Under the pieces are notes generated by a model that had not been told where the DNA came from, ran no database searches, and saw only the letters and a list, made by a program, of their open reading frames with translations. Below, one piece after another: positions 4,038-16,864 of a stretch of DNA of 20,000 bases. The stretch is from the NCBI GenBank assembly GCA_023150835.1, contig JAKLKB010000002.1:170728-190727 (forward strand), given 5' to 3'. Origin of the DNA: Myxococcota bacterium. GTDB taxonomy: Bacteria > Myxococcota_C > UBA6777. The translations under genes and the position numbers were made by a program. How positions within the stretch are numbered: the stretch's first letter is position 1; each line of letters starts with the position of its first letter.

Positions 4038-5972
4038 ATGCACAACGAGACACGGGCTTTCATGCGCCCAAACGGCTTTTTTTGGCTTTCTCTTGTGGTG
4101 ATGGCGGCTGGTTTGGGTTTTTGGGGTCATCTGCATTGGCAAAGCCCGCCTTGGCATGACCAAGCCTCCCTTCCATTGAGGCTTTCCGCGATCGGTGGGC
4201 ATGCTCTCTGCGGTGCGTTGTTGATCGGTTTTTTCGTGGGCTTGGCCCCCCTCTCTTTGCGTGCCGCGATCCTTGAACACCCGCGCCTTTTTGCGATATC
4301 GCGAGGATATCTCTTGCTTTGGTGGTGCGTGGCGTGGGCGGGCATGGGCCTTCCGTTGTTTGGGTGGGCGGGGATTCTTGTCTGGGGGGTGTGCGCCTTG
4401 GTATATGCTTCCCATCAAAACCGCGAAGCGAGCTACGCTGAGACCTTACAAGCCGCCCTTCCCTTCGGTGTTTTGGGTGGAATGATGATCCAGTTCGCTC
4501 CTGCTGCTTTGGCGTGGCTTTGGTGGATCGCCCCTTGGTTCGGGCTTATTCTAGCACTATGCAGTCTCCCGCTTTGGCGCTGGACCTCCGATACGCGAGG
4601 GGCCTTGCTTGGGATCTTGCTTCTGCTCTTTGGGCTTGGCCCTTGGCTCGCTCGTGAACAGCGATACACAAACGCCCTCTCTCTCGCCCAATCTTCCGAT
4701 CTTCAACCCGCGACTCTCCGCCCTTTCCTTCGCCGTCTCGTCCAAGAAACCGCGATCCCCACCTCTCACACTCAAAAGCTCTTCGGTCTCTTTGTGGCTC
4801 GGCCCAATACACAACACGAAGCCCTCCGCTGTCTTCTCCTCCATTGGACCCGCCGATCGACCCCTTCTGCTCTTCCGCAACCCCTCCTTCAACAGATCAC
4901 TTGGAACGCACGCACCGAACGCCTCTTGCGCGAACAACTGCTCCCGCACCCTTCCCATCAAGCGGCTCTACGACAACAAGCCCTCGCCCTGCTTTCTTCT
5001 CCCCAAGACGCTCCGCTCGCAGCGCATCTGTTGTCTTTCTTTGCTCGCCACCTCCCACAACATCGCCCCATACTCTCCGCTTCGATCTCCACCCTTTACT
5101 TCTCTTCCACACACCAAGATCCCCTTTACATCGACCTTCTCCGATCACTGCTCCAACCCATACACGGAAAAGACGCATCCATCGCGCTTTTGCGCTTCTT
5201 TTTTCAGCACCACCCCCAACAGCCCGACGCCCAAAAACAACAATGGCTCCGCGCTCTCCTTTCCTTAAACGCCCAAGACACCGCACTCTTGCGACGCACC
5301 TTCTCCGAACCCATCCGCGCACAGATCCGACAGCACTTGCGATCCCTCGACACACCACAACAGATCCTTGGGATGCAGCTACTCGCCCACCTCGGCCACT
5401 CCGACTCCGAGTGGCTCGCCACCTTTTGGGATACCCTGCCCCCCTCTTTTTTGGACACCAAGCTGCGCCATCCTCATCCTTCTTTGCGCGCCTACGCCCA
5501 CGCCCTGCGTTTCCAGCAATGGGCCTCTTACCCCTTACGCAACCAACAACTCCTCCAAGCCCTCCGAGATCCCTCCCCGCTCGTCCGACACCTCGCCCTC
5601 TCCGCCTTCCCTTCCATCCACCAACAACTCCAACACATCGCTCCGCTCGCCCCCATCGATCCTCGCCTCCATCCCTTGCTCTTCCAAACTGCCCTTCAAG
5701 CACTCCGCGCACAACCCCAAGATATCGAACCCATCGCTTACACCCTCTCCCGTCTCCACCTCACAACCACCCAAAAACAACAAGCCTTCTCCGCTGCCAA
5801 AACACTCCTCCCCCTCCAACAAGCCCGATCTGCCCGTTTTCTCCGCTCTCTCTTTGCTCTGCTCGCCACCCTCGAACCCCAACCCACCACACGCCCCACC
5901 ACGCAACCTATCACGCGCCCCACCACACAACCCATCACGCGCCCCACCGCACGCCCCGCCCCAGCACGATAA
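4038..5972 (+). CDS. Hypothetical multi-pass membrane protein with C-terminal HEAT/ARM-like helical region
   Basis: ATG 4038 with SD-like aaggaaa, 5 nt after the previous stop. N-terminal TM segments. HEAT-like motifs LLQALRDPSPLVRHLALSAF and LRHPHPSLRAYA. PTTRPTTQPITR repeat tail. Confidence 0.75.
   Translation: MHNETRAFMRPNGFFWLSLVVMAAGLGFWGHLHWQSPPWHDQASLPLRLSAIGGHALCGALLIGFFVGLAPLSLRAAILEHPRLFAISRGYLLLWWCVAWAGMGLPLFGWAGILVWGVCALVYASHQNREASYAETLQAALPFGVLGGMMIQFAPAALAWLWWIAPWFGLILALCSLPLWRWTSDTRGALLGILLLLFGLGPWLAREQRYTNALSLAQSSDLQPATLRPFLRRLVQETAIPTSHTQKLFGLFVARPNTQHEALRCLLLHWTRRSTPSALPQPLLQQITWNARTERLLREQLLPHPSHQAALRQQALALLSSPQDAPLAAHLLSFFARHLPQHRPILSASISTLYFSSTHQDPLYIDLLRSLLQPIHGKDASIALLRFFFQHHPQQPDAQKQQWLRALLSLNAQDTALLRRTFSEPIRAQIRQHLRSLDTPQQILGMQLLAHLGHSDSEWLATFWDTLPPSFLDTKLRHPHPSLRAYAHALRFQQWASYPLRNQQLLQALRDPSPLVRHLALSAFPSIHQQLQHIAPLAPIDPRLHPLLFQTALQALRAQPQDIEPIAYTLSRLHLTTTQKQQAFSAAKTLLPLQQARSARFLRSLFALLATLEPQPTTRPTTQPITRPTTQPITRPTARPAPAR
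5880..5958 (+). repeat. ~24-bp degenerate coding repeat (QPITRPTT-like) at CDS 3' end
   Basis: QPTTRPTTQPITRPTTQPITRPTARP. Confidence 0.85.
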
Positions 5973-5976
5973 ATGT

Positions 5977-7023
5977 CTACTTGATACAACGCAACAGCCC
6001 GACATCGCAGCGTTGGCCGGTTGCGCAGTCGCTGTCCTGCAAGCAACCGAGACACACGCGGCGCTGGCCGAAGGTCAAGCATTTGTCGTAGCCAACAGCA
6101 ACGCATTGGCTATCGTTGTTGCAAGGACGTGCTTGACATTCTCCTCCGAGGCAGCGGGGAAATCCTGACGCACAATCGGCGTCCTTCGTGCATTGAACGC
6201 AGCGCTTTTCGGTCGAACAAAATGGCAGAGCGATCGAACAATCGCTGGCGTCTTTGCACCCACACGATCCCTCGACACATCGGGGCTTTTGCGGATCACC
6301 AAGACAATCGTCTGCGCTCGTACATTCGACACAAGCCCCTTCGTTGCAACGCTTCCCCTCGCCACAGTCTTGGTCTTTCTCGCACGCAGGCTTGCAAGTC
6401 CATGTCTTCTCATCGCACTTTGGCGTAGGTGCTTTGCAGTCTGCGCTCGTCACACATTGCACGCAAAACAGCGCTCCACTCGAATCTTTGCGACACTTTT
6501 GACCTGTGGGGCAAGAGCAACCCGCACAGATCCCGCTCAAACATTGGGGGGCATTTTCGCTTGAACAATCCCGATCATCGCGGCATTGCACGCACACATT
6601 GGACTCACAATAACTGCGATCCTTGCTGCTACAATCCCCGTTGCCTCGGCATTGCACACACACGCCTGTTTGACAAAAAGGTCGTGCCGTTCCGCAATCG
6701 CTATCCGCGATGCACTCAAAGTCTCGCTTACACAAGTTGCACACAAGGCAAGTTTTGGCGGTGGGACGACCATCGCTGTTGTTTTGGCGCTCCCAACATT
6801 CCCCGCACAATCGGGCTTTTTCGCGCTCCAATGTACACGTTCGCACCGTACTCCACTTGTTGTTCGAGTCGTAAGTATAAGTGATCTTGCAAGTGCCTTC
6901 GTATTCGCAACGATTGTCTTCTTCTTTTTCGCTTGGTTGGCAGGCCCCCGCCCACACAACAAACCACCACGCGATCAGAGATATCCGCAACCACCGAATG
7001 TTCTGGATGGATCTAGGCTGCAT
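5977..7023 (-). CDS. Cys-rich repeat lipoprotein (myxobacterial type)
   Basis: Signal peptide with lipobox-like WAGA-C. About 10 repeats of a CVQCxxDxDCxxxxPxCxxGxC-like unit. Confidence 0.8.
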   Translation of the reverse strand: MQPRSIQNIRWLRISLIAWWFVVWAGACQPSEKEEDNRCEYEGTCKITYTYDSNNKWSTVRTCTLEREKARLCGECWERQNNSDGRPTAKTCLVCNLCKRDFECIADSDCGTARPFCQTGVCVQCRGNGDCSSKDRSYCESNVCVQCRDDRDCSSENAPQCLSGICAGCSCPTGQKCRKDSSGALFCVQCVTSADCKAPTPKCDEKTWTCKPACEKDQDCGEGKRCNEGACVECTSADDCLGDPQKPRCVEGSCGCKDASDCSIALPFCSTEKRCVQCTKDADCASGFPRCLGGECQARPCNNDSQCVAVGYDKCLTFGQRRVCLGCLQDSDCATGQRCDVGLLRCIK

Positions 7024-7708: not shown

Positions 7709-9376
7709 TCAGGCGTCGGAGTCTTCGGATGGATCGAAGAAGATGCGTTCTTGGTGTTCTTGTTCTTCCCGTCCTTCTTCGTGATAAGAGCCGCCACCTT
7801 CGGGAAGTTCGATGCGACGACTGGGCCGGTCAAACAAGTCGATCAACAGGGCCTCAGCATCGTCATCTCCTGCTTTGGCGAGGTTGGTGGCGATCATCGC
7901 AGCGATCAATTGGAGCATCTCTGCGGACATACACGACGAAGCCCCTTGTTTGATCAACATATCTTTAATCTTGTCCATCAACTTGCGCTGCCCGGGCTTT
8001 TTTAACACCTTGGTCAACAGGCTCATCAACTCACCCGAAGGGATCACGCCCTGTTGAGCGAGGCTTGCGATGCGGTTTGAGATCCCCGTCACGTCGTGCA
8101 ACATCACGGTATGCAGGTTTTGTAAAGCCACCGCCTCTTGGGCGCTGGCCCATTTGAAGACCAACTGTTTGAGCTGCTGACGCGGAGAGTCGGGCGTTCC
8201 GTCTTGGGCGGATGTTTGGGTCGTTGCGTTCATCAACAGATCTTGAACCGAACCCGAAGTCGGCTTGTCGGTGGTTTGGGCTGCGGTCTGTGCGCTCGCT
8301 GCGGTCTGTGCGCTCGCTGCCGTCTGTGGGAGAGCTTGGGAAAGCTCCGCTTTGTTTTGTGAAAGCTGCGCCATCCCCGCCCCAAGAGTCGCGGTTTGGG
8401 CAGTCGTCTGTAAGGTCGATGGTGCAGCCTCCTTCCCACCACCCAACGAGGCATCTGCTTTTCCTGACGCACCTTGCGCGAGATTGTTTTGAAGGGATGC
8501 CTTGTCTGCGGCCTTTTCGGTCGACGCGCCTTGTGCCGAGGCTTGGGCCAGTCCCTTTTCAGCGGTCGACTGTGTACTCTCTGCGGCTTTTCCTTGCAAA
8601 AGGCTTGTTGACTTCGCAGCCTCGGAAAGCCCCTTGCTGTCGAGTCCTTGGGGCTGTGGCAGCGTACCATTTGAGGAAGTCAGCTTCGCTCCGCCGCTTC
8701 CGAGCGGATCCGCCATCCCCGTAGAATGAGCCGCTTTCGTTTGGCCCGACATCCCGACCGAAGCACCTTTGGCGGCGTTTTGCGACGAAAGGCTATCGCC
8801 TTGGGCAGTTCGTGTCCCCTCGGATGCGCCCTGCAAAACGCTGCGCTGGATGGCGCGTGCTTGCGGCGTGCTTTTTGGGGCCAACAGCCCTTTGTCCTCT
8901 TGGCCCTTGGGATCGGCCTTTGCGTCTTTCCCCGATTTCAGCTTCCCACCAAGATCCCCAAATCCAATCGCCGTTCCTGCCTTGCCATCGGCCTTTCCAA
9001 CATCCCCCTCCATCTTTCCCTTTTCGAGGGCTTTTTCAGCAATCAAAAATCCCAACCCCGCCTTGCTCAAACCCGCGCTCGACAAGATGTCATCCTTGCT
9101 CAACAAGTTCCCGAGCGTCGGGGCTTCTGCGCCCAAAAGCTTCGTCGTTTGATGCGTTTCAAAACTGCCCTTTTGAGGGGCTTGTGTTGGAGAGACGGTT
9201 GGCGATGGGTTGGTTTGAGCGGTAGCTTCGCCCTTTGCGACACCTTCGCTGCCTTGGGGGGAACCCTGAATCGTCCCGCCTCCTTGCGCGGGGCCTTTCG
9301 CAATCGTCCCATCCGTCAACGGAGGCATCCCTCCTTGGAGCATCGGTGTGGGTGGGGGTGAGATGATCCGCGACAT
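7709..9376 (-). CDS. Hypothetical protein, long A/G/S/T/Q/K low-complexity region with helical C-terminal domain and acidic tail
   Basis: 555-aa ORF from ATG 9376 with SD GAGG. Internal 18-bp repeat (QTAASA). No recognisable catalytic motif. Confidence 0.75.
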   Translation of the reverse strand: MSRIISPPPTPMLQGGMPPLTDGTIAKGPAQGGGTIQGSPQGSEGVAKGEATAQTNPSPTVSPTQAPQKGSFETHQTTKLLGAEAPTLGNLLSKDDILSSAGLSKAGLGFLIAEKALEKGKMEGDVGKADGKAGTAIGFGDLGGKLKSGKDAKADPKGQEDKGLLAPKSTPQARAIQRSVLQGASEGTRTAQGDSLSSQNAAKGASVGMSGQTKAAHSTGMADPLGSGGAKLTSSNGTLPQPQGLDSKGLSEAAKSTSLLQGKAAESTQSTAEKGLAQASAQGASTEKAADKASLQNNLAQGASGKADASLGGGKEAAPSTLQTTAQTATLGAGMAQLSQNKAELSQALPQTAASAQTAASAQTAAQTTDKPTSGSVQDLLMNATTQTSAQDGTPDSPRQQLKQLVFKWASAQEAVALQNLHTVMLHDVTGISNRIASLAQQGVIPSGELMSLLTKVLKKPGQRKLMDKIKDMLIKQGASSCMSAEMLQLIAAMIATNLAKAGDDDAEALLIDLFDRPSRRIELPEGGGSYHEEGREEQEHQERIFFDPSEDSDA

Positions 9377-9603
9377 GTGTTTGTCCTCGCAAAAAAACGC
9401 TGTGAAGCGCACTCCGACCCAACGAAGCGCATCAAGTATCTTGTTGATATAGCCGCTTTTTTGCGCAAAAAGCAACTTCCTCTCTGATCATCCTCGCCAA
9501 ATCTCCCCCCAAAGTTGCGCCCGCCACGCTGGTTTGCTTTCTGACCTCTTGCATCGTATACATCCCTGCACGTTCTCTTTGGTGCCACTTGTCGGATGAG
9601 TTT

Positions 9604-9725
9604 TGTGGGGCCTTGCCCCACACCCCACAAGGGGTCGCGACCCCCTTGACCCCATATCGGCGAACAGATCATCGTTTTTCACACCAACGACTCTCTCGCT
9701 TGAACAGGCCCGAACACTGGGGTTT
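9604..9725 (+). repeat. Dispersed ~120-nt structured element, copy A
   Basis: tgtggggccttgccccacaccccacaaggggtcgcgacccccttgaccccatatcg...accaac...cgaacactggggttt, similar to 13459-13580 and to the reverse complement of 10588-10712. Confidence 0.8.
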
Positions 9726-9799
9726 CCTCTCTCCCATCCAACCCTAGCCCAAGAGTTCCGCCACATCTCGTCAACCACCCATCATAAGGACTGAAACGG

Positions 9800-10507
9800 A
9801 TGTCATCGCCTTTTTATACGAATACTTCGACGCCACCGCTTTTTCGCACACTTTTTTCTTTGGAGGGCATTGGCTTCGCTTCGATCATCTTGGTGTTTTG
9901 GGCGTTTTGGGGTGTCCCTTGTGCCTACGCGACCCCTGTCACCCCTCCCATCGAGCGTTCCGCGTCCAACCCGCCGCCCACCCAAAGCTCTCCCATCTCC
10001 CCATCCATGCGGGTTTTGTGGCGACTCCATCAAGAACAGCTCCGCCTTGTCGACACCAGCGTCCTGTACAAAGGCCCCAAAAAAATGGAGCTGACCTTCT
10101 TAGGCGGCGGTTACGAATCGATCTTCCAAAGCTCCCCCAAAGCCTTGCGCCTCGCGGGTAGCTTTCACGGCCTACAGATCGGTGGTTTCGTCCTCAGTTC
10201 GATCGGCCTTGGAGCCACTCTCGCAGGAACCTTGATCGTGATCATTACTCCCCAAGCCGTCGTCCAACCCACTGCAGGCGGCGTTTTGGGTCCTGAACTT
10301 TTTTGGGGCCTACTGCTCGGTGGAACCGCCCTCAGCTTGATCGGCTCCATCCTTGCGCAAAGCTCCTACGGTATGCTTTATCGCGCCGTCGATATCTATA
10401 ACCGCGAAACCTTCGAGAAGATCTTTCGTGACGCCAACCAAGGACAACTCCCCCAAGCCCACACACTCCCGAAACGACGCACCCTTCTCTATGCCGCCAC
10501 CCCCTAA
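9800..10507 (+). CDS. Hypothetical exported/membrane protein
   Basis: SD-like taagga upstream. N-terminal hydrophobic segment ending AYA, Pro/Ser linker, two C-terminal Gly-rich hydrophobic helices followed by RAVDIYN. Confidence 0.7.
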   Translation: MSSPFYTNTSTPPLFRTLFSLEGIGFASIILVFWAFWGVPCAYATPVTPPIERSASNPPPTQSSPISPSMRVLWRLHQEQLRLVDTSVLYKGPKKMELTFLGGGYESIFQSSPKALRLAGSFHGLQIGGFVLSSIGLGATLAGTLIVIITPQAVVQPTAGGVLGPELFWGLLLGGTALSLIGSILAQSSYGMLYRAVDIYNRETFEKIFRDANQGQLPQAHTLPKRRTLLYAATP

Positions 10508-10587
10508 TCCGCTCCTTCCCAAAAGACACAACACCCCGAAAATCCCCATGTACACGCCAACTCAAGCCAAACAGACACAACATCGCC

Positions 10588-10712
10588 AAAATCCCCGTGT
10601 TCGCGCTCGACCAAGCGGCTGTGCTGTCGGTTTGAAGAACGTCGGTTCGCCCCATCGATACGGGGTCAAGGGAGCCGCGCTAAGGGCGCGGGGTACGGGG
10701 CAGCGCCCCAAA
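10588..10712 (-). repeat. Dispersed ~120-nt structured element, copy B (inverted)
   Basis: Reverse complement reads ttggggcgctgccccgtaccccgcgcccttagcgcggctcccttgaccccgtatcg...accgacagc...cgcgaacacggggattt. Confidence 0.8.
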
Positions 10713-10743
10713 CAAACAAATCGTGCAAGAGATCCTACCCCAA

Positions 10744-11700
10744 CTAGAGATGTTTCGACAACATCTCCATCAAGCGCACAAAAGGTCGAGTGCGTTGCAT
10801 GATGTAAAAGTGCAGGATGGGTGCGCCTTTTTCGAGCAGATCCATCGCTTGACGATAGGCCCATTCGACGCCGACTTGCGTCACTTCGGCGGGGGTGGTG
10901 GCCTCCATGACGCTTTGGGTCAATTCATAGGGGATATCGATGTGAAAGGAGCGGGGGATCGAAGTGAGTTGCTGCTTCGAGGTCATGATCTTGAGGCCGG
11001 GGATGATCGGCATGGTGATGCCGAACTTGCGAGCGCGATCGCAAAAATCGAAATAAGACTGGTTGTCATAAAACATCTGCGTCACCGCAAACTGCGCACC
11101 CGCCTCTTGTTTTTTCTTCAACATCTCCAGATCGAACATCCGATTGGGCGCTTCAAAGTGTTTTTCAGGGTAAGCCGCCACACCGACGCAAAAGTTTGTT
11201 TTTGCGGCATCCATCAACTGTTCTTGGTACACACCGTGATTCATGTTGACGATCTGCTGCACAAGATCCGAGGCGTAGGTGTTGCAGGTACGCCCGGGCG
11301 CAAGCTCGCGCTTTGGCTTACCATCCCCTCGGATCGCCAACAGGTTTTCGATCCCCAAGTAGTTGAGTTCGATCAGCGCATCTTCGGTTTCTTCGCGGGT
11401 AAAGCCTGCGCACAAGATGTGAGGAACGGGTTCAATGTTGTACTTATATTTGATCACTGCACAAAGGCCGAAAGTTCCCGGGCTTTTGCGCCGTGTTCGC
11501 CGATGAAACGTGCCATCGGGTCGCTCTTCCCACGCGATATCCGCCGCATGGCTTGTCACGTTCACAAACGGCGGATTAAAGGGCCGAATGGATTCGATGG
11601 CTTCGTGAAATTCGGTAATATTTCCCCCTCGCTTGGGCGGGATGATCTCGACGCTAACTTGGGGATTTCGGGCGGATTGGATATGATCGATCACTTTCAT
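10744..11700 (-). CDS. metF: 5,10-methylenetetrahydrofolate reductase
   Basis: SVEIIPPK, FVNVT, VPHILC, LAIRGD, GVAAYPEKH, AGAQFAVTQMFYD, PIIPG, LHFY motifs. Start taken at ATG 11700 (MKVIDHI). Confidence 0.93.
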   Translation of the reverse strand: MKVIDHIQSARNPQVSVEIIPPKRGGNITEFHEAIESIRPFNPPFVNVTSHAADIAWEERPDGTFHRRTRRKSPGTFGLCAVIKYKYNIEPVPHILCAGFTREETEDALIELNYLGIENLLAIRGDGKPKRELAPGRTCNTYASDLVQQIVNMNHGVYQEQLMDAAKTNFCVGVAAYPEKHFEAPNRMFDLEMLKKKQEAGAQFAVTQMFYDNQSYFDFCDRARKFGITMPIIPGLKIMTSKQQLTSIPRSFHIDIPYELTQSVMEATTPAEVTQVGVEWAYRQAMDLLEKGAPILHFYIMQRTRPFVRLMEMLSKHL

Positions 11701-12031
11701 CCGAGAGACCTTTGATGGTGCCTTGGGGGAGTCAAAAACCAAGGTAAACCATCCAAAACAAATGTTTTTTCCACAAAGCAACCACTTTCGCACAGGTTGC
11801 TTGATCTTGCGTGGTTGTCACCATATACCCCTTCGCAAATTTTTCAAGAAGAAAGGAGGCCCAGCACAGCACGCGATAGCCCGCACATCGCTCCAAACGA
11901 CTTCCGCAACACCAAGAGCAAAAACGTGATTTCTTCTTCCCCCTTTCGCTGGCCGATCTTTTTCCGTATGCTTTGGCACACCACAGCGCGCCGCGCCTCA
12001 ACGCCAACACAACCAAACCAAAGGAGCGGGA

Positions 12032-13396
12032 ATGACCGAGCCAAACAACACATCCTCTCGTCCTGTCGTTGCAGTCCTTGGAGCCGGACCTGCGGGTCTT
12101 TATGCCGCCAATAAGCTCGCCCAAGAAGGTGTCGATGTCTTGCTGATCAACCGCGACATCAAACCCGGTGGCCTTGCAGAATACGGCATCTACTTTGACA
12201 AGCACAAAATGAAAAACGGCCTACGCAAACAATTCGACCGTATCCTCGCCCAAAAAAACATCGCCTACATGGGGCATATCGAAGTCCGTCAACAAGGCGG
12301 AACGTTGACCCTCGAAGAGTTCGAAGACTTGGGCTGCGCCGCTTATCTTGTGGCGGTCGGCGCACAAGGAACGCGAAAGCTCGGATATGACGGCGAAGAC
12401 CAGATCTCGGGACTCTTTCACGCCAAGGATCTCGTCTACCACTACAACCAACTCCCCCCCTTCGCTTCGCAGGAGTTTTCCATCGGCCAACACGTCGGTA
12501 TCATCGGCATGGGCAACGTCATGGTCGATATCGCCCACTGGCTTGTGTGGGAAAAAAAGGTCGCCTCCGTGACAATCCTTGCTCGTCGTGGCCCCGCAGA
12601 ACGCGCCTACACCGACAAAGAGATGCGCGAAGTCATCCGCGCCGTCGACCTTGATGCTCTTGATGTCGAGATCGCTCGGATCGCCGACAATCTCCGTTCC
12701 GTCGGCCAAGATCCCGAAGCCCTCAAAAAAGAATTGCGCGAACCTCTCGACAAAGCCGAAGTCTTCGACAGTCCAACACGCATGGCCTTTCGCTTCCTTG
12801 TCGGTGTCAACAAGCTGATCGCTGGCCCTGACGGTCGACTCGCTGCGGTGGAGCTTGGACACAACCAACTCATCCAAAAAGGCGACCGCCTCAACGCCCA
12901 ATCCACCGGCCAAACCGAGATCCTCCCCTTGGATACGCTGGTGTACGCCATCGGCGATCAAGTCGACGAAGGACTCGGGCTGCCTTTTCGCAACGGACAA
13001 TTCCTAACACCAAGCGGCCCAAACCCCCACGAACCCGAAAAAGCCCGCTACGAAGTCAAAGACCCCCAACACGATCAACCCCGCCCCGGCTGGTTTTTAG
13101 GCGGATGGGCGCGCATCGCCTCTGATGGACTTGTCGGAAAAGCCCGTGCTGACGGCGAAACCGCTGCAAACGAAGTCTTGCGCTGGCTCAAACAACACAA
13201 CCCCCAAAGCGCCGACCTCGCTTCCTGTCAACAACGGCTCCGCACTCTGCTTCAACAAAAGCAACACCCCTTCGTCGAATACGCCGACGTCCTCACACTC
13301 CAATCCATCGAACAAGCTCGCGCCGATGCCCTCGGTGTCCCCCTCTTTAAATTCAACACCAACGAAGAAATGCTTGCTGCCATCCAAAAATCCTGA
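12032..13396 (+). CDS. FAD-dependent ferredoxin--NADP+ reductase (adrenodoxin reductase/FprA-like)
   Basis: VAVLGAGPAGLYAA, PGGLAEYGI, IIGMGNVMVDIA, ARRGP, GWAR...GLVG motifs. SD aaggag upstream. Confidence 0.85.
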   Translation: MTEPNNTSSRPVVAVLGAGPAGLYAANKLAQEGVDVLLINRDIKPGGLAEYGIYFDKHKMKNGLRKQFDRILAQKNIAYMGHIEVRQQGGTLTLEEFEDLGCAAYLVAVGAQGTRKLGYDGEDQISGLFHAKDLVYHYNQLPPFASQEFSIGQHVGIIGMGNVMVDIAHWLVWEKKVASVTILARRGPAERAYTDKEMREVIRAVDLDALDVEIARIADNLRSVGQDPEALKKELREPLDKAEVFDSPTRMAFRFLVGVNKLIAGPDGRLAAVELGHNQLIQKGDRLNAQSTGQTEILPLDTLVYAIGDQVDEGLGLPFRNGQFLTPSGPNPHEPEKARYEVKDPQHDQPRPGWFLGGWARIASDGLVGKARADGETAANEVLRWLKQHNPQSADLASCQQRLRTLLQQKQHPFVEYADVLTLQSIEQARADALGVPLFKFNTNEEMLAAIQKS

Positions 13397-13458
13397 GAAG
13401 CTCGGTCAACGCGCTCGGTTTATTTGATCGTGTGGGGTTCCACTCCACTGTTTGATCA

Positions 13459-13580
13459 TGTGGGGTTCCACCCCACGCCCCGCAAGGGAGTCCGACTCCC
13501 TTGACCCCGTATCGACGGGAAGAACAGGCGGTTTCTACACCAACAGCGGCTCCGCTCGAAGTACCGCGAACACGGGTTTT
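13459..13580 (+). repeat. Dispersed ~120-nt structured element, copy C
   Basis: tgtggggttccaccccacgccccgcaagggagtccgactcccttgaccccgtatcg...accaacagc...cgcgaacacgggtttt. Confidence 0.8.
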
Positions 13581-13765
13581 CTCGACAAGTCATCCGATAT
13601 CCACCCATTGTGTATACATCTCCCAGATCTCGTCTCGCTGCTATCACGAAACACCGTATTTCCAAAAAGAAAAAGCTCTTCACCAAACAACTGTGCCGCT
13701 TAAGTCTTTACAACACGGATATCTCAACATCGCGTCACTCTCCAACACAACATGAGAGGCTGCTA

Positions 13766-14974
13766 ATGCTGCCAAAAAACGTGATGTACCTTGTATTCCT
13801 CGTGTTCTTCGCTTTTGCATCGTGGCGCTGTGGCGATCTTCCTCCCGAAGAACCCCTGCCCAAAGAATCCACCACCCCGTCCGAACAAAGCCAAGAAACC
13901 CCTGCCCAAGAGATCGCACAAACGGATACAGAGTCCCCACCTGCGGATTCCAACGGCGAACCCCAACCCGCAGACTCCAACAACGAACCCACCACAGAAC
14001 CCCTGTCTACAGACTCCAACAACGAACCGATCGCGGATTCCGCCCACGAGTCCAACACAGAGCAACCCCTCGAACCTTCGGATCAAAACGACGCAAGCGA
14101 AACCACCACCGAACCAACCCTGCACGAATCCTCGACTGAATCGCCCCTACATCCCGAAGAAGCAACCCACCAAGACGCCCGTCCACCCGAAGTGACGAAC
14201 GAATTCACCCCCGAAAAAACTCCCGAAGCTCTCCCCGAAACACACATTGGATCGAGCGGATGCGGAAAAAATCCACCCGTCACAGGTCTCCAAGAAAACA
14301 TGACCCTCACCGTCATGAACAAGCAACGCAACTATGTCCTTTCCGTTCCAGCCAATTACAACAAAAACACCCTACATCCCGTGATCTTTGGATTCCCCGG
14401 CCTCAACGCCACAGGAAAACAAGCCCGTAGTTATTTGGGCCTCGAAAAAACTCCCGGGCCTGCTGTCCTCTATGTCTATCCGACCGCTCAAGTCGTTTCT
14501 TCTGGTTGGCAGATGCAGGTCGGAGGCGGAGACATCGAGTTTTTCGATGAGATCCTCAAAAAACTCGAAACCGAATTTTGCGTCGACACCAAAAGAATCT
14601 TCAGCACGGGTTTCAGTCATGGAGCGATGTTTACAAACAACCTCACTTGCGTTCGTATCCAAAAGCTCCGAGCGGTCGCTCCCATCGGAGGATCAGGCCC
14701 TTGGTACAACAACTGCAAAAACGGCCCTCTCCCCGCGATGGTGATCCACGGAACCACGGACACCGTTGTCAAACTGACTGATGGCGAAAAAACCCGTGAT
14801 CACTGGAAAACACAAAACGCCTGCACCAACACCTCGCAATCCGCCCCTCCGTCGCCCTGTGTCGCTTACCGTTCTTGCACACAACCCACGCTTTGGTGTG
14901 CTTTCCAAGGAGGGCACCAAGTCCCGAGCTTCGCAGGCACAGGCATCCGAGACTTTTTCCTTGGCCTCCCGTAG
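13766..14974 (+). CDS. Putative lipoprotein with acidic Pro/Glu/Thr linker and C-terminal alpha/beta-hydrolase (feruloyl esterase / PHB depolymerase-like, LpqC-like)
   Basis: SD gagagg. Signal peptide ending ASWR-C. SSGCGK, nucleophile motif GFSHG, IHGTTDTVV, WCAFQGGH. Confidence 0.8.
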   Translation: MLPKNVMYLVFLVFFAFASWRCGDLPPEEPLPKESTTPSEQSQETPAQEIAQTDTESPPADSNGEPQPADSNNEPTTEPLSTDSNNEPIADSAHESNTEQPLEPSDQNDASETTTEPTLHESSTESPLHPEEATHQDARPPEVTNEFTPEKTPEALPETHIGSSGCGKNPPVTGLQENMTLTVMNKQRNYVLSVPANYNKNTLHPVIFGFPGLNATGKQARSYLGLEKTPGPAVLYVYPTAQVVSSGWQMQVGGGDIEFFDEILKKLETEFCVDTKRIFSTGFSHGAMFTNNLTCVRIQKLRAVAPIGGSGPWYNNCKNGPLPAMVIHGTTDTVVKLTDGEKTRDHWKTQNACTNTSQSAPPSPCVAYRSCTQPTLWCAFQGGHQVPSFAGTGIRDFFLGLP

Positions 14975-14990
14975 CCTCGATGGTATCGGG

Positions 14991-15121
14991 ATGAGAGGAC
15001 GAGGCGGTCGCTCTTTTCGTAGAGGTCGTGGCGGATGAGCGGACGAGGCGGTCACTCTTTTCGTAGAGGTCGTGGCGGATTAGAGGACGAGGCGGTCACT
15101 CTTTTCGTAGAGGTCGTGGCG
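14991..15121. repeat. 44-bp tandem triplication of the ABC-F gene 3' end
   Basis: Units start at 14991, 15035 and 15079 (at[g/t]ag[a/c]ggacgaggcggtc[g/a]ctcttttcgtagaggtcgtggcg). The third unit encodes RHDLYEKSDRLVL-stop on the minus strand. Confidence 0.95.
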
Positions 15122-16717
15122 CATCGCTTGGATGTTTTTGTCTTTGAGGTAGGCTTCGAGGGTGGCGTGGCGGTCGATCACACCGCGATCTGCGATCTCG
15201 ATGATGCGATTGGCGACGGTGTTGGTGAACTGGTAGTCGTGGGATGAAAACAAGATGATCTCGGGGAATTGGATCAAGCCGTTGTTGAGGGCGGTGATCG
15301 CTTCAAGATCGAGGTGGTTGGTGGGTTCATCGAGGATGATCGCGTTAGAACCGCTGAGCATCATCTTGGAGAGCATACAACGGACTTTTTCGCCCCCCGA
15401 AAGGACGGTGGATTTCTTGAAGACTTCATCGCCCGAAAACAGCATCCGACCGAGAAAACTGCGCGCAAAGGGTTCGCCTTCACTGGGGGGAGCATACTGA
15501 AGAATCCATTCGATCAAGTTGAGATCACCCTTGAAATGTTCGTCGTTTTCTTTCGGTAGATACGCCTTGGTGATGGTGGTTCCCCATTGGATCGAACCTG
15601 CATCAGGCGCGACTTCGCCCATGATCATCTGAAAAAAAGTCGTCTTCGCAAGACTGTTCGGGCCGATCAAGGCGATCTTATCGCCCTTTTTGACCGATAA
15701 GTTAAAGTCCTTAAACAACTGCACCCCATCGACGGACTTTTCCAGCCCTTCGATCTCCAAGATAATCTTTCCACAAGGACGCTCTGGCTTAAAACCAACA
15801 AACGGAAACTTGCGGTTGGAGGCGGGCATTTGTTCGATCTCGATCTGATCGAGCAGCCTTTTGCGGGACGTGGCTTGTCGTGCTTTTGAAGCGTTTGAAC
15901 CAAAGCGCAAGATAAACTCTTTGAGTTCTTTGATCTTGTCTTCTTTTTTCTTGTTTTCATTTTGACGCTGTTGCATCACCAACTGGCTGGATTGATACCA
16001 AAAGTCGTAGTTTCCGACGTAAAGCTTCAACTGGCCGTAGTCGATATCTGCAACGTGCGTACAGACGTTATTGAGGAAGTGGCGGTCGTGGGAGACCACG
16101 ATCACGGTGTTTTCGAACTTGCTCAAAAAGTCTTCGAGCCATTGGATCGATTGCAGATCCAACTGGTTGGTGGGTTCGTCGAGCAGAAGGATATCAGGGT
16201 TTCCAAACATCGCTTGAGCCAGCAAGATCCGCACTTTTTGCGTTCCTTCTAATTCTTTCATCAAGCGCTCGTGGATCTCAGGTTCGATACCAAGGCCACT
16301 TAACAAGTTCGCGGCTTCGTATTCGGCCTCGTATCCGCCAAGATCCGCAAACTCTCCTTCGAGATCCGCTGCCCGCATACCATCTTCTTCGCTCATATCG
16401 GGCTTTGCATACAACGCCTCGCGTTCTTTCATCACGCGATAAAGCTCTTTGTGCCCCATAATCACGGCATCCAAGACGCGATGCTCATCAAAAGCAAATT
16501 GATCTTGGCGCAACACAGCGATCCGCTTGTTGGGGGCGATCAGAACACGCCCCGAAGTCGGTTCGAGTTCCCCCGCAAGGATCTTGAGGAAGGTAGACTT
16601 GCCTGCCCCGTTTGCGCCGATCAACCCATAACAGTTGCCCGGGACAAATTTTACATCGACATCCTTAAACAAGACGCGACCGCCAAAAGAGAGGGTGACA
16701 CGCTCGACCTGAATCAT
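15080..16717 (-). CDS. ABC-F family ATP-binding protein (YbiT/YkpA-like translation factor)
   Basis: Two ABC domains (GANGAGKST / LLLDEPTNQLD / VSHDRHFL; GPNSLAKTT / LSGGEKVR / ILDEPTNHLD), GNYDFW linker, no TM segments. SD GGAG before ATG 16717. Confidence 0.93.
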   Translation of the reverse strand: MIQVERVTLSFGGRVLFKDVDVKFVPGNCYGLIGANGAGKSTFLKILAGELEPTSGRVLIAPNKRIAVLRQDQFAFDEHRVLDAVIMGHKELYRVMKEREALYAKPDMSEEDGMRAADLEGEFADLGGYEAEYEAANLLSGLGIEPEIHERLMKELEGTQKVRILLAQAMFGNPDILLLDEPTNQLDLQSIQWLEDFLSKFENTVIVVSHDRHFLNNVCTHVADIDYGQLKLYVGNYDFWYQSSQLVMQQRQNENKKKEDKIKELKEFILRFGSNASKARQATSRKRLLDQIEIEQMPASNRKFPFVGFKPERPCGKIILEIEGLEKSVDGVQLFKDFNLSVKKGDKIALIGPNSLAKTTFFQMIMGEVAPDAGSIQWGTTITKAYLPKENDEHFKGDLNLIEWILQYAPPSEGEPFARSFLGRMLFSGDEVFKKSTVLSGGEKVRCMLSKMMLSGSNAIILDEPTNHLDLEAITALNNGLIQFPEIILFSSHDYQFTNTVANRIIEIADRGVIDRHATLEAYLKDKNIQAMRHDLYEKSDRLVL

Positions 16718-16864
16718 CAAAAGCTCCGTCCATAGGGGGATTTAACCAAGGCACAGCAGCTTTCTTCTGCAACGCCCTTGCCTACACGATATCCTCGTAT
16801 CGTGTGGACAGAGCCTTTTGCCACGAAAGTGCAAGACTTTCAACAAAGATTTTCTAAAAATGTT

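Follow-up and report, generated by a model that had tools for sequence, protein, structure and literature searches.

A 20,000-nucleotide stretch of Myxococcota bacterium DNA (the ‘window’, taken from the genome that we call G000) carries three diverged intergenic elements, copies A, B and C, each built around a conserved interior or ‘core’ of about 122 nt. [quoted passage not shown] The MITE family to which they belong is new and has been recently mobile, and its structured core is bcr1-like. An earlier reading made from sequence alone (the ‘sequence-only reading’) had proposed either a multi-copy structured RNA or a non-autonomous element, perhaps one mobilised as single-stranded DNA (ssDNA); it is the mobile element that is borne out, with 729 matches in the genome and filled and empty sites between congeners, although not the single-stranded route.

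The family is very abundant and recently active, at about one copy per 10 kb, and its hundreds of diverse copies form a natural data set on why some bacterial MITEs keep an internal fold, as reported for bcr1; a base pair between a loop and a linker, together with ends that decay fast, are concrete and testable oddities. There are also practical consequences, as the repeats break short-read assemblies (66 of the 593 full copies lie at contig edges) and structure-based screens would mistake copies for genes of non-coding RNA (ncRNA).

A large family in two congeneric genomes

The three cores stand where the sequence-only reading had placed them (A at 9604..9725 on the + strand, B at 10588..10712 on the - strand and C at 13459..13580 on the + strand), and align with MAFFT over 153 columns at a mean column identity of 79%. 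A generic repeat finder picked out the same likeness independently, pairing 10594-10677 with 13493-13576 (84 nt, 74% complementary) and 9636-9659 with 10656-10679 (24 nt, 88%), and the letters of both 5′ hairpins, of the CCCTTGACCCC block and of the CGAACACGGG end are likewise as first given. A hidden Markov model (HMM) built from these three copies and run with nhmmer (E<=1e-3) over G000 (7,562,603 nt in 239 contigs, 55.2% G+C) returned 729 matches, 353 on the + strand and 376 on the - strand; that a model of three sequences should do so places the likeness of the window copies far beyond chance. Full-length copies number 593, all but five of them between 116 and 126 nt long, mostly 120-123 nt with a mode of 122 nt, and family DNA amounts to 84,026 nt, or 1.1% of the genome. 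Most copies lie outside crude gene calls, in keeping with a non-coding character.

Across 41 genomes, 35 of them unrelated, the DNA query was positive in two, G000 and its same-genus relative G001. A covariance model (described below) gave at least 150 matches in each of these, at similar density; among the six genomes of the phylum in the collection (G000-G005) it found none in G002 (same genus, 64% complete), G003 or G005, and in G004, from another genus, one weak 79-nt match without the inner domain (28.5 bits, L249:1501-1579, contig C32). This last stretch keeps stems like hairpins 1 and 2 and a U-run, and may represent a shorter element related to the family. A pattern scan of 185,579 species genomes listed at least 86 stretches, of which 80 were put to the covariance model; 11 are true members, all from a single metagenome-assembled genome labelled Myxococcota bacterium, and the other 69 gave no model match and are taken as chance. 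Metagenome contigs bearing a 20-mer of the terminal repeat yielded 10 model matches in 9 of the 20 loci tested, and plasmid and phage collections held no match to the family.

Rfam returned no match in the window at gathering thresholds, and at E<=10 over 9300-13900 its sole match was unrelated, lying inside a gene (12157-12247, at 19.3 bits where the gathering score is 98); the comparison that the sequence-only reading had proposed thus names no Rfam family. A full-text literature search found no description of such a family in Myxococcota. That reading had itself named absent covariation, a scarcity of further copies or a match to a named family as outcomes that would speak against it, and what we find on examining each is covariation, many copies and no such match.

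Filled and empty sites define the mobile unit

The unit that inserts is larger than the core. Copy A is absent from the orthologous site in G001, where the missing block is ~190 nt and not 122 nt, and in the reverse case G001 has a copy where the window is empty (~5940-5980). When 494 G000 copies were queried against 967,611 nt of G001, 27 could be placed; 17 of these are common to both genomes and the other 10 are absent from G001, as indels of 162-196 nt, and eight G001 copies face G000 intervals of 22-111 nt instead of 240-243 nt. Empty sites in a relative, which the sequence-only reading had proposed to look for, are therefore present in both directions, whereas its size of ~120 nt describes the conserved 122-nt interior and not the inserted unit.

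Clean insertions open with a 16-nt terminal inverted repeat of consensus TAGGACTTACGCAGTT, which has variants, and close with its reverse complement. In clean filled/empty pairs the ends read TAGGACTTACGC.. and ..GCGTAAGTCCTA, and the flanking pentamers AAACG, TAAGA and TCAAA are duplicated at the filled site and single at the empty one. G000 holds 34-35 well-paired core-type elements of 160-180 nt; the five nucleotides beyond the paired repeats are identical in 7/35 of them and in 14/45 elements of a second, 117-nt type (below), against 0/35 and 1/45 in a control shifted by 6 nt on the right, and the target duplications read T-N-N-N-A. Terminal repeats of 16 nt with 5-bp target duplications point to double-strand transposition of the DDE type.

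Allowing four repeat variants and at most 4 edits, we recognise a left end in 198 and a right end in 226 of 540 copies, and at least one in 313, against 17 of 600 random windows; the single consensus repeat, at the same tolerance, is found at both ends of 56/540. Ends are best kept in young copies: among the ten absent from G001, six have both ends, three have one and one has none, and among the 17 shared copies the corresponding numbers are two, seven and eight (with the strict consensus, both ends in 5/10 young against 1/17 shared copies, p=0.015). Variants of the inner half-motif match between the left and right ends of a copy (44 and 4 against 7 and 7, Fisher p=0.0014), as would be expected if one protein reads both. 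In G001 the repeat pattern occurs 133+128 times, against 1+0 for its reversed control.

The same 16-nt repeats bound a second MITE of ~117 nt, with 45 paired copies in G000 and an unrelated interior that contains a perfect GGGGCGGTTCGCGAACCGCCCC palindrome. One such element sits in G001 (L043:18807-18923) just downstream of copy C, with TCCAA duplicated, where the window (~13665) is empty. In metagenomes, too, the same 20-mer end borders other interiors.

Two further observations concern the integrity of individual elements. At C104:~73444-73556 in G000, compared with L065:12095-12217 in G001, linker-like and right-repeat-like sequence (..TGGTTTTTTGGGGCAACGGCGTCAC..) remains in G000 and the core, which G001 has, is missing, so that the site records either precise loss of a core between T-runs or insertion of one into an empty shell. 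Separately, a further element of ~240 nt with ends of its own (CGCGCCTTGTTAAGGTGGAAAC...; e.g. at C227:3115-3518, C183:3020-4237 and C169:29126-29966) is inserted exactly at hairpin 1 in 75/540 copies (~14%), in either orientation and so that the hairpin is seen on each side of it. Tandem repeats are contained in its longer versions, and it looks like a hairpin-targeting insertion.

A covarying fold with a loop-linker pair

From 5′ to 3′ the fold would comprise hairpin 1, hairpin 2 and a long-range stem closing around an inner stem, with a single pair joining the middle base of the hairpin-1 loop to the purine just 5′ of hairpin 2. This loop-linker pair is additional to the fold of the sequence-only reading and is obeyed in all three window copies (T9613-A9627 in A, C-G in B and C13468-G13482 in C). 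Mutual information over the 540 copies makes four column pairs stand out, all of them complementary: one closes hairpin 1 (C-G 275, T-A 232), one tops hairpin 2 (G-C 241, C-G 66, A-T 28), one lies in the inner stem (A-T 289, G-C 198), and the last is the loop-linker pair (T-A 214, C-G 205, T-G 36, C-A 2).

RNAalifold, run on 29 copies, returned no more of the proposed fold than hairpin 1, besides small local stems, and for this reason the structure was imposed and then tested on copies that the model had not seen. A covariance model with 32 imposed pairs was built from these 29 copies and used to search 41 unused loci, giving 97 unseen copies, about half of them from G001. In these, 86.4% of cells pair, against 37.8-49.6% with slid partners, and changes on both sides affect 19 pairs and 151 cells, against 55+-15 after shuffling, a value that none of 500 shuffles reached. 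The compensatory C-G/T-A change in hairpin 1, first noticed between the window copies, recurs here (UA 50, CG 40), one pair each at the top of hairpin 2 and in the inner stem likewise covaries, and the loop-linker pair, which lies outside the model, reads CG 46, UA 37, UG 3 and other 7, with slid partners pairing in 3-4%. The claim that the fold has been under selection is thereby supported, in that both pairing and covariation are kept in copies not used to propose it.

All eight combinations of three covarying pairs are present, in 27-59 copies each, and one arm of hairpin 1 lies between the two bases of the loop-linker pair; combinations so complete, and pairs so interleaved, cannot arise from a few subfamilies or from simple recombination, and indicate repeated selection for the pairing itself. 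The long-range stem fares less well. It is kept, with 76% of cells paired; two-sided change, which the sequence-only reading had reported for it, is nearly absent, and its two outer pairs are unpaired in 57/97 and 40/97 copies. The inner stem occurs in two registers, GCGGRGC/GCTCCGC and GCGA-AGAG/CTCT-G-TCGC. Single-sequence folding lends weak thermodynamic support (z = -2.8 for A, +0.6 for B and -2.2 for C against shuffles), and helix mismatches show no excess of G.U over A.C (hairpin 1, 111 vs 124; hairpin 2, 86 vs 149; inner stem, 76 vs 63; total, 273 vs 336).

Divergence between orthologous copies

Across the 17 ortholog pairs, cores differ at 4.8% of family-conserved columns, 8.0% of middling ones and 17.6% of variable ones, against 5.2% in non-coding flanks. 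A search of these pairs for purifying selection at single loci showed none: conserved columns change at the neutral rate, so that the conserved positions are unprotected once a copy is in place. It seems, then, that the fold matters when elements propagate or are first retained, and not in the way of genes that serve the host at hundreds of loci.

Some orthologous cores differ by 14-23% beside flanks at ~5%. The pair C103:11203-11323 and L058 shows 28 core differences and the pair C76:10126-10245 and L061 shows 17, with 120-nt flanks differing at 3-9 positions. Divergent cores beside quiet flanks, taken with the excess in variable columns, suggest that copy-to-copy conversion, or re-insertion at the same site, may also occur.

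A model for mobilisation and its alternatives

Bringing these findings together, we propose that the element consists of a 16-nt terminal repeat (TAGGACTTACGCAGTT, with co-varying variants), a T-rich linker of ~10 nt, the 122-nt core, a short linker and the inverted repeat, and that a trans-supplied transposase, presumably of the DDE type, most likely moves it, cutting with a 5-bp stagger at T-N-N-N-A targets. The same ends would also move at least one other MITE, that of ~117 nt. The fold would be needed at the point of propagation or first tolerance and would not be kept up at each locus thereafter. As to its role, our best guess, and the part of the model with the weakest support, is that it may act on a plus-sense single-stranded transcript, where a structured module ending in a U-run would limit harm when the element lands beside genes.

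Several observations weigh against this model. Only 111/540 copies hold both ends at <=4 edits, a perfect 5-bp duplication is present in only 20-31% of well-paired elements, and an own-pair end complementarity score of >=8 is reached by 98/540 copies, where shuffling the partners gives 48 and outer-flank controls give 20. In contrast to a typical MITE, it is the interior that is better conserved and not the ends; between orthologs divergence is 15.5% over the left 30 nt, 9.2% over the right 25 nt and 5.2% in the neutral non-coding flanks. Some young insertions have poor ends, and one copy (C199:6962-7085) has a 14-21-nt direct repeat and not a 5-bp one; long flanking direct repeats (>=11 nt) show a small excess only, in 11/540 copies against 1/540 with shuffled partners. 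The divergent orthologous cores fit the model poorly, the lack of a G.U excess weighs on a role at the level of RNA, a terminator scan of 9300-13900 flagged none of the three element 3′ ends, and the RNA-library contigs that enter copies are uninformative as to RNA ends and strand.

Split copies, long repeat-bounded intervals and self-BLAST disclosed in G000 neither an autonomous element nor a transposase that has these ends, and this too counts against the model. The candidate parent intervals were rejected on their contents (an oligoribonuclease gene, tandem-repeat DNA or ordinary genes), self-BLAST revealed no multi-copy insertion sequence (IS) in G000, and 23 metagenome loci with the 20-mer end contained no parent transposase. 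The assembly of G000 lacks contigs of <2.4 kb, and collapsed IS copies may simply be missing from it. The terminal repeat may resemble Tn3-type ends; no Tn3-type transposase domain was found in G000, G001 or G002, all of them incomplete assemblies, and this likewise tells against the model. The IS91 family domain PF04986 gave no match, uninformatively, as the control genomes were likewise without one.

The first alternative inverts the relation between core and ends: the 122-nt core would itself be mobile as a folded single strand, either as ssDNA moved by an HUH enzyme or as RNA moved by a reverse-transcriptase or RNA-guided system, and the repeat-bearing copies would be secondary captures between DDE-type MITE ends. 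The core is indeed better conserved than the ends, 227/540 copies have no recognisable end, and core identity to the consensus is equal with and without repeats (0.778 vs 0.776). The loop-linker pair recalls tertiary contacts in the ends of ssDNA transposons, and its preference for T.G over C.A (36 to 2) implies that one strand matters. The C104 site, with its linker-like and end-like flanks and no core, could be read in the same way, and the genome does contain TnpB-like genes and one RAYT-like gene. We nevertheless think this reading unlikely, for all ten G000-specific insertions are 162-196 nt long and not 122 nt, nine of the ten keep at least one terminal repeat, and 5′ of the core there is only the linker T-run and no conserved 4-5-nt target. 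Copy orientation shows no association with local GC skew (Fisher p=0.25), a weak proxy, as the skew is extreme and probably tracks the coding strand: in 40-kb windows of G000 its 5th-95th percentiles run from -0.22 to +0.20, and it appears to follow a C-rich coding strand.

Mobilisation by an HUH enzyme of the RAYT or IS200-like kind, as the sequence-only reading had suggested, is disfavoured further by the genes themselves. No copy lies <1.5 kb from any HUH or TnpB gene, so that the anticipated proximity to a RAYT, TnpA or TnpB-like gene is not seen and no HUH gene is linked to the copies, and terminal inverted repeats with 5-bp duplications are found instead. The RAYT-like gene of G000 is single (C113:53269-54030); its 254-aa product has the HUH and Y motifs, and a long IGQAQ-type repeat interrupts it. 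The copy closest to this gene is 5.8 kb away, and the surrounding 3.8 kb contain no hairpin-1-like match. It has GTAG-bearing palindromes of its own, unlike hairpin 1, and RAYT-like genes occur also in G002 and G004, both of which are without the family (apart from the one weak partial match in G004). G000 further contains an IS605-like pair and additional TnpB-like genes. Two pairs of 24-nt inverted repeats containing CTGTAG lie ~600 nt from the single RAYT-like gene of G000 (L045:1450-2214, - strand; L051:2854-3000), and these may be that gene's own REP system.

A second alternative, which we hold to be quite unlikely, is that the fold with its loop-linker pair serves as a cis-acting single-stranded recognition module (structured RNA or ssDNA) needed for mobilisation or its control, with a logic comparable to that of bridge-RNA or omega-RNA systems. 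Such a module would account both for the better conservation of the interior than of the ends and for the linkage equilibrium among compensatory variants.

Genomic context and a possible role for the host

Context was assessed on crude gene calls (4,316 genes, covering 79% of G000). Of the 593 full copies, 440 are intergenic, 87 overlap a called gene by >30 nt and the 66 noted above lie at contig edges. Within co-directional spacers 162 copies are co-oriented with the genes and 94 anti-oriented (binomial p=2.5e-5), and a further 98 lie in convergent and 86 in divergent spacers; co-oriented copies sit at a median of 55 nt beyond the upstream gene, and a 3′ T-run of >=4 is present in 454/540 copies. 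Copies B and C follow this co-oriented, downstream-of-gene pattern, and copy A sits in a divergent spacer. RNA-library contigs from one sample are in line with transcription into both: one (10555-11714) runs from the methylenetetrahydrofolate reductase (MTHFR) gene through copy B and 33 nt beyond, and others pass from an oxidoreductase gene into copy C and break inside the repeat. Copy C had no cover in the small-RNA library X17, a result that does not speak for absence.

These features are the attraction of a third alternative, by which the copies would be host-functional RNA modules (terminators, mRNA stabilisers or small RNAs), each selected in place, with mobility a matter of historical spread only. 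Its fold is conserved and covarying, and such roles are described for SPRITE and REP elements (PMC3184786). We consider it very unlikely: conserved core columns diverge between orthologs at 4.8%, as fast as non-coding flanks, 10/27 placeable copies are absent from the congener, and the anti-oriented and divergent-spacer copies are hardly placed for such a task. Nor do the helices favour G.U over A.C, the ends are not called terminator-like, the contig that traverses copy B does not stop there, and Rfam offers no match. A multi-copy structured RNA gene, the other proposal of the sequence-only reading, is not supported either, on related grounds, namely copies in both orientations and all kinds of spacer, presence or absence between congeners, and neutral ortholog rates in conserved columns.

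Comparison with known elements

Judged by its description, bcr1 would be the nearest functional analogue. In the Bacillus cereus group it is reported as ~155 bp long with 5-bp flanking direct repeats, at positions that vary between close strains, transcribed, and with compensatory changes that keep its fold (Delihas 2011, PMC3184786). The present family shares the 5-bp direct repeats, the variable positions between congeners and the compensatory changes, with transcription suggested by the RNA-library contigs only. It differs in belonging to another phylum and in having no Rfam match. The fold of bcr1 is a cruciform of two stem-loops, whereas ours has two 5′ hairpins and a closed multi-stem domain with the loop-linker pair, between 16-nt terminal inverted repeats.

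Nezha, Chunjie, Correia/nemis and SPRITE elements have also been described (PMC3184786; 2024 review, PMC10969869). Nezha, Chunjie and Correia/nemis resemble the present family in being small, non-coding and mostly intergenic, with terminal inverted repeats, direct repeats and filled/empty sites, and in being mobilised in trans. Their stable fold derives chiefly from paired terminal repeats, and they have a known parent IS that shares their ends; in the present family conservation is lowest at the ends, the fold lies in the interior, the duplication is of 5 bp (9 bp in Chunjie) and a parent IS was not found in our searches. IMU and Tn3-derived miniature elements are alike in their terminal inverted repeats and 5-bp duplication (for IMU, PMC3184786); the difference lies in the absence of a Tn3-family transposase domain from the three incomplete same-genus assemblies.

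With REP and REPIN sequences the family has in common its GC-rich hairpins, intergenic position, high copy number and, for hairpin 1, an occurrence in short tandem arrays. REPs are ~20-40-nt palindromes that carry a conserved 5′ tetranucleotide and cluster about a RAYT gene, and the unit here is ~170 nt long and asymmetric, has terminal repeats and a target duplication, and is not near the RAYT-like gene, the nearest copy and the hairpin-1-like matches around that gene being as given above; the family does not fit a REP/REPIN system with RAYT. Elements derived from IS200/IS605 (PATE type) resemble ours in their subterminal hairpins and strand asymmetry, and TnpB-like genes are present in the genome. 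PATE-type elements have no terminal inverted repeats, make no target duplication and insert 3′ of a fixed tetra- or pentanucleotide; the terminal repeats and duplications, and a left flank that shows only the linker T-run, do not fit a miniature element of this origin. An intrinsic terminator, or a SPRITE-like element, shares the stem with a terminal U-run and the bias to gene 3′ ends, and differs in that the closing stem here encloses ~50 nt and copies lie also in divergent spacers; the scan flagged none of the three 3′ ends as a short GC-rich hairpin directly followed by a T-run.

The window copies and neighbouring features

In copy A, hairpin 1 occupies 9605-9621, and the order 5′ to 3′ is hairpin 1, hairpin 2, the CCCTTGACCCC block, the inner stem and a CGAACAC..GGGG TTT end. 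The left end of the insertion (9578..9603, +), which the G001 site is without, consists of a terminal repeat that has degenerated to 4 edits from the TAGGAGTGACTTGTTG variant, and of a ..GGATGAGTTTT linker. Its right part (9726..9770, +), also missing from G001, contains a right terminal repeat that can hardly be recognised (5 edits), and the boundary is approximate, the alignment being ambiguous by a few bases.

Copy B, which has the variant hairpin 2 CCGCGC-cctta-GCGCGG and is common to G001, lies 32 nt past the stop of the MTHFR gene (10744-11793, -), in the same orientation as that gene. All three window copies are among the top-ranked matches of the HMM. Copy C is common to G001 at 95% identity and stands ~60 nt past an FAD/NAD (pyridine-nucleotide) oxidoreductase gene (12032-13396, +), again in the orientation of the gene, with hairpin 1 at 13460-13476 and hairpin 2 at 13483-13503. 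Its linker and right terminal repeat (..CGACAAGTCATCC..) follow at 13581..13602 (+), at 3 edits from the AACAAGTCACTCCTA-type variant, and the left repeat is no longer recognisable.

An extra, slightly degenerate hairpin-1 unit stands in tandem 5′ of copy C (13432..13448, +), and in the terminator scan it alone was flagged. Hairpin-1 units are repeated together with ~11 nt of upstream linker, with one extra unit in the window (13420-13476) and three, of ~28 nt each, in the G001 ortholog (L043:18480-18600). A few copies elsewhere show tandem duplication of edge and flank, and comparable edge duplications of 22-28 nt are seen at C225:6011, C183:4584 and C217:518.

The window also contains some further features. 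A tandem repeat at 2276-2347 has six to seven copies of a 9-nt unit, CATTCCGTA; tandem 12-nt units lie within a C/A-rich reading frame at 5883-5954; and three copies of a 44-nt unit (14989-15124) adjoin the start of an ABC-F-type ATPase gene (15080-16720, -). At 537-1967 there is a squalene-epoxidase-family gene (Pfam SE, E=1.6e-79), of a kind uncommon in bacteria.

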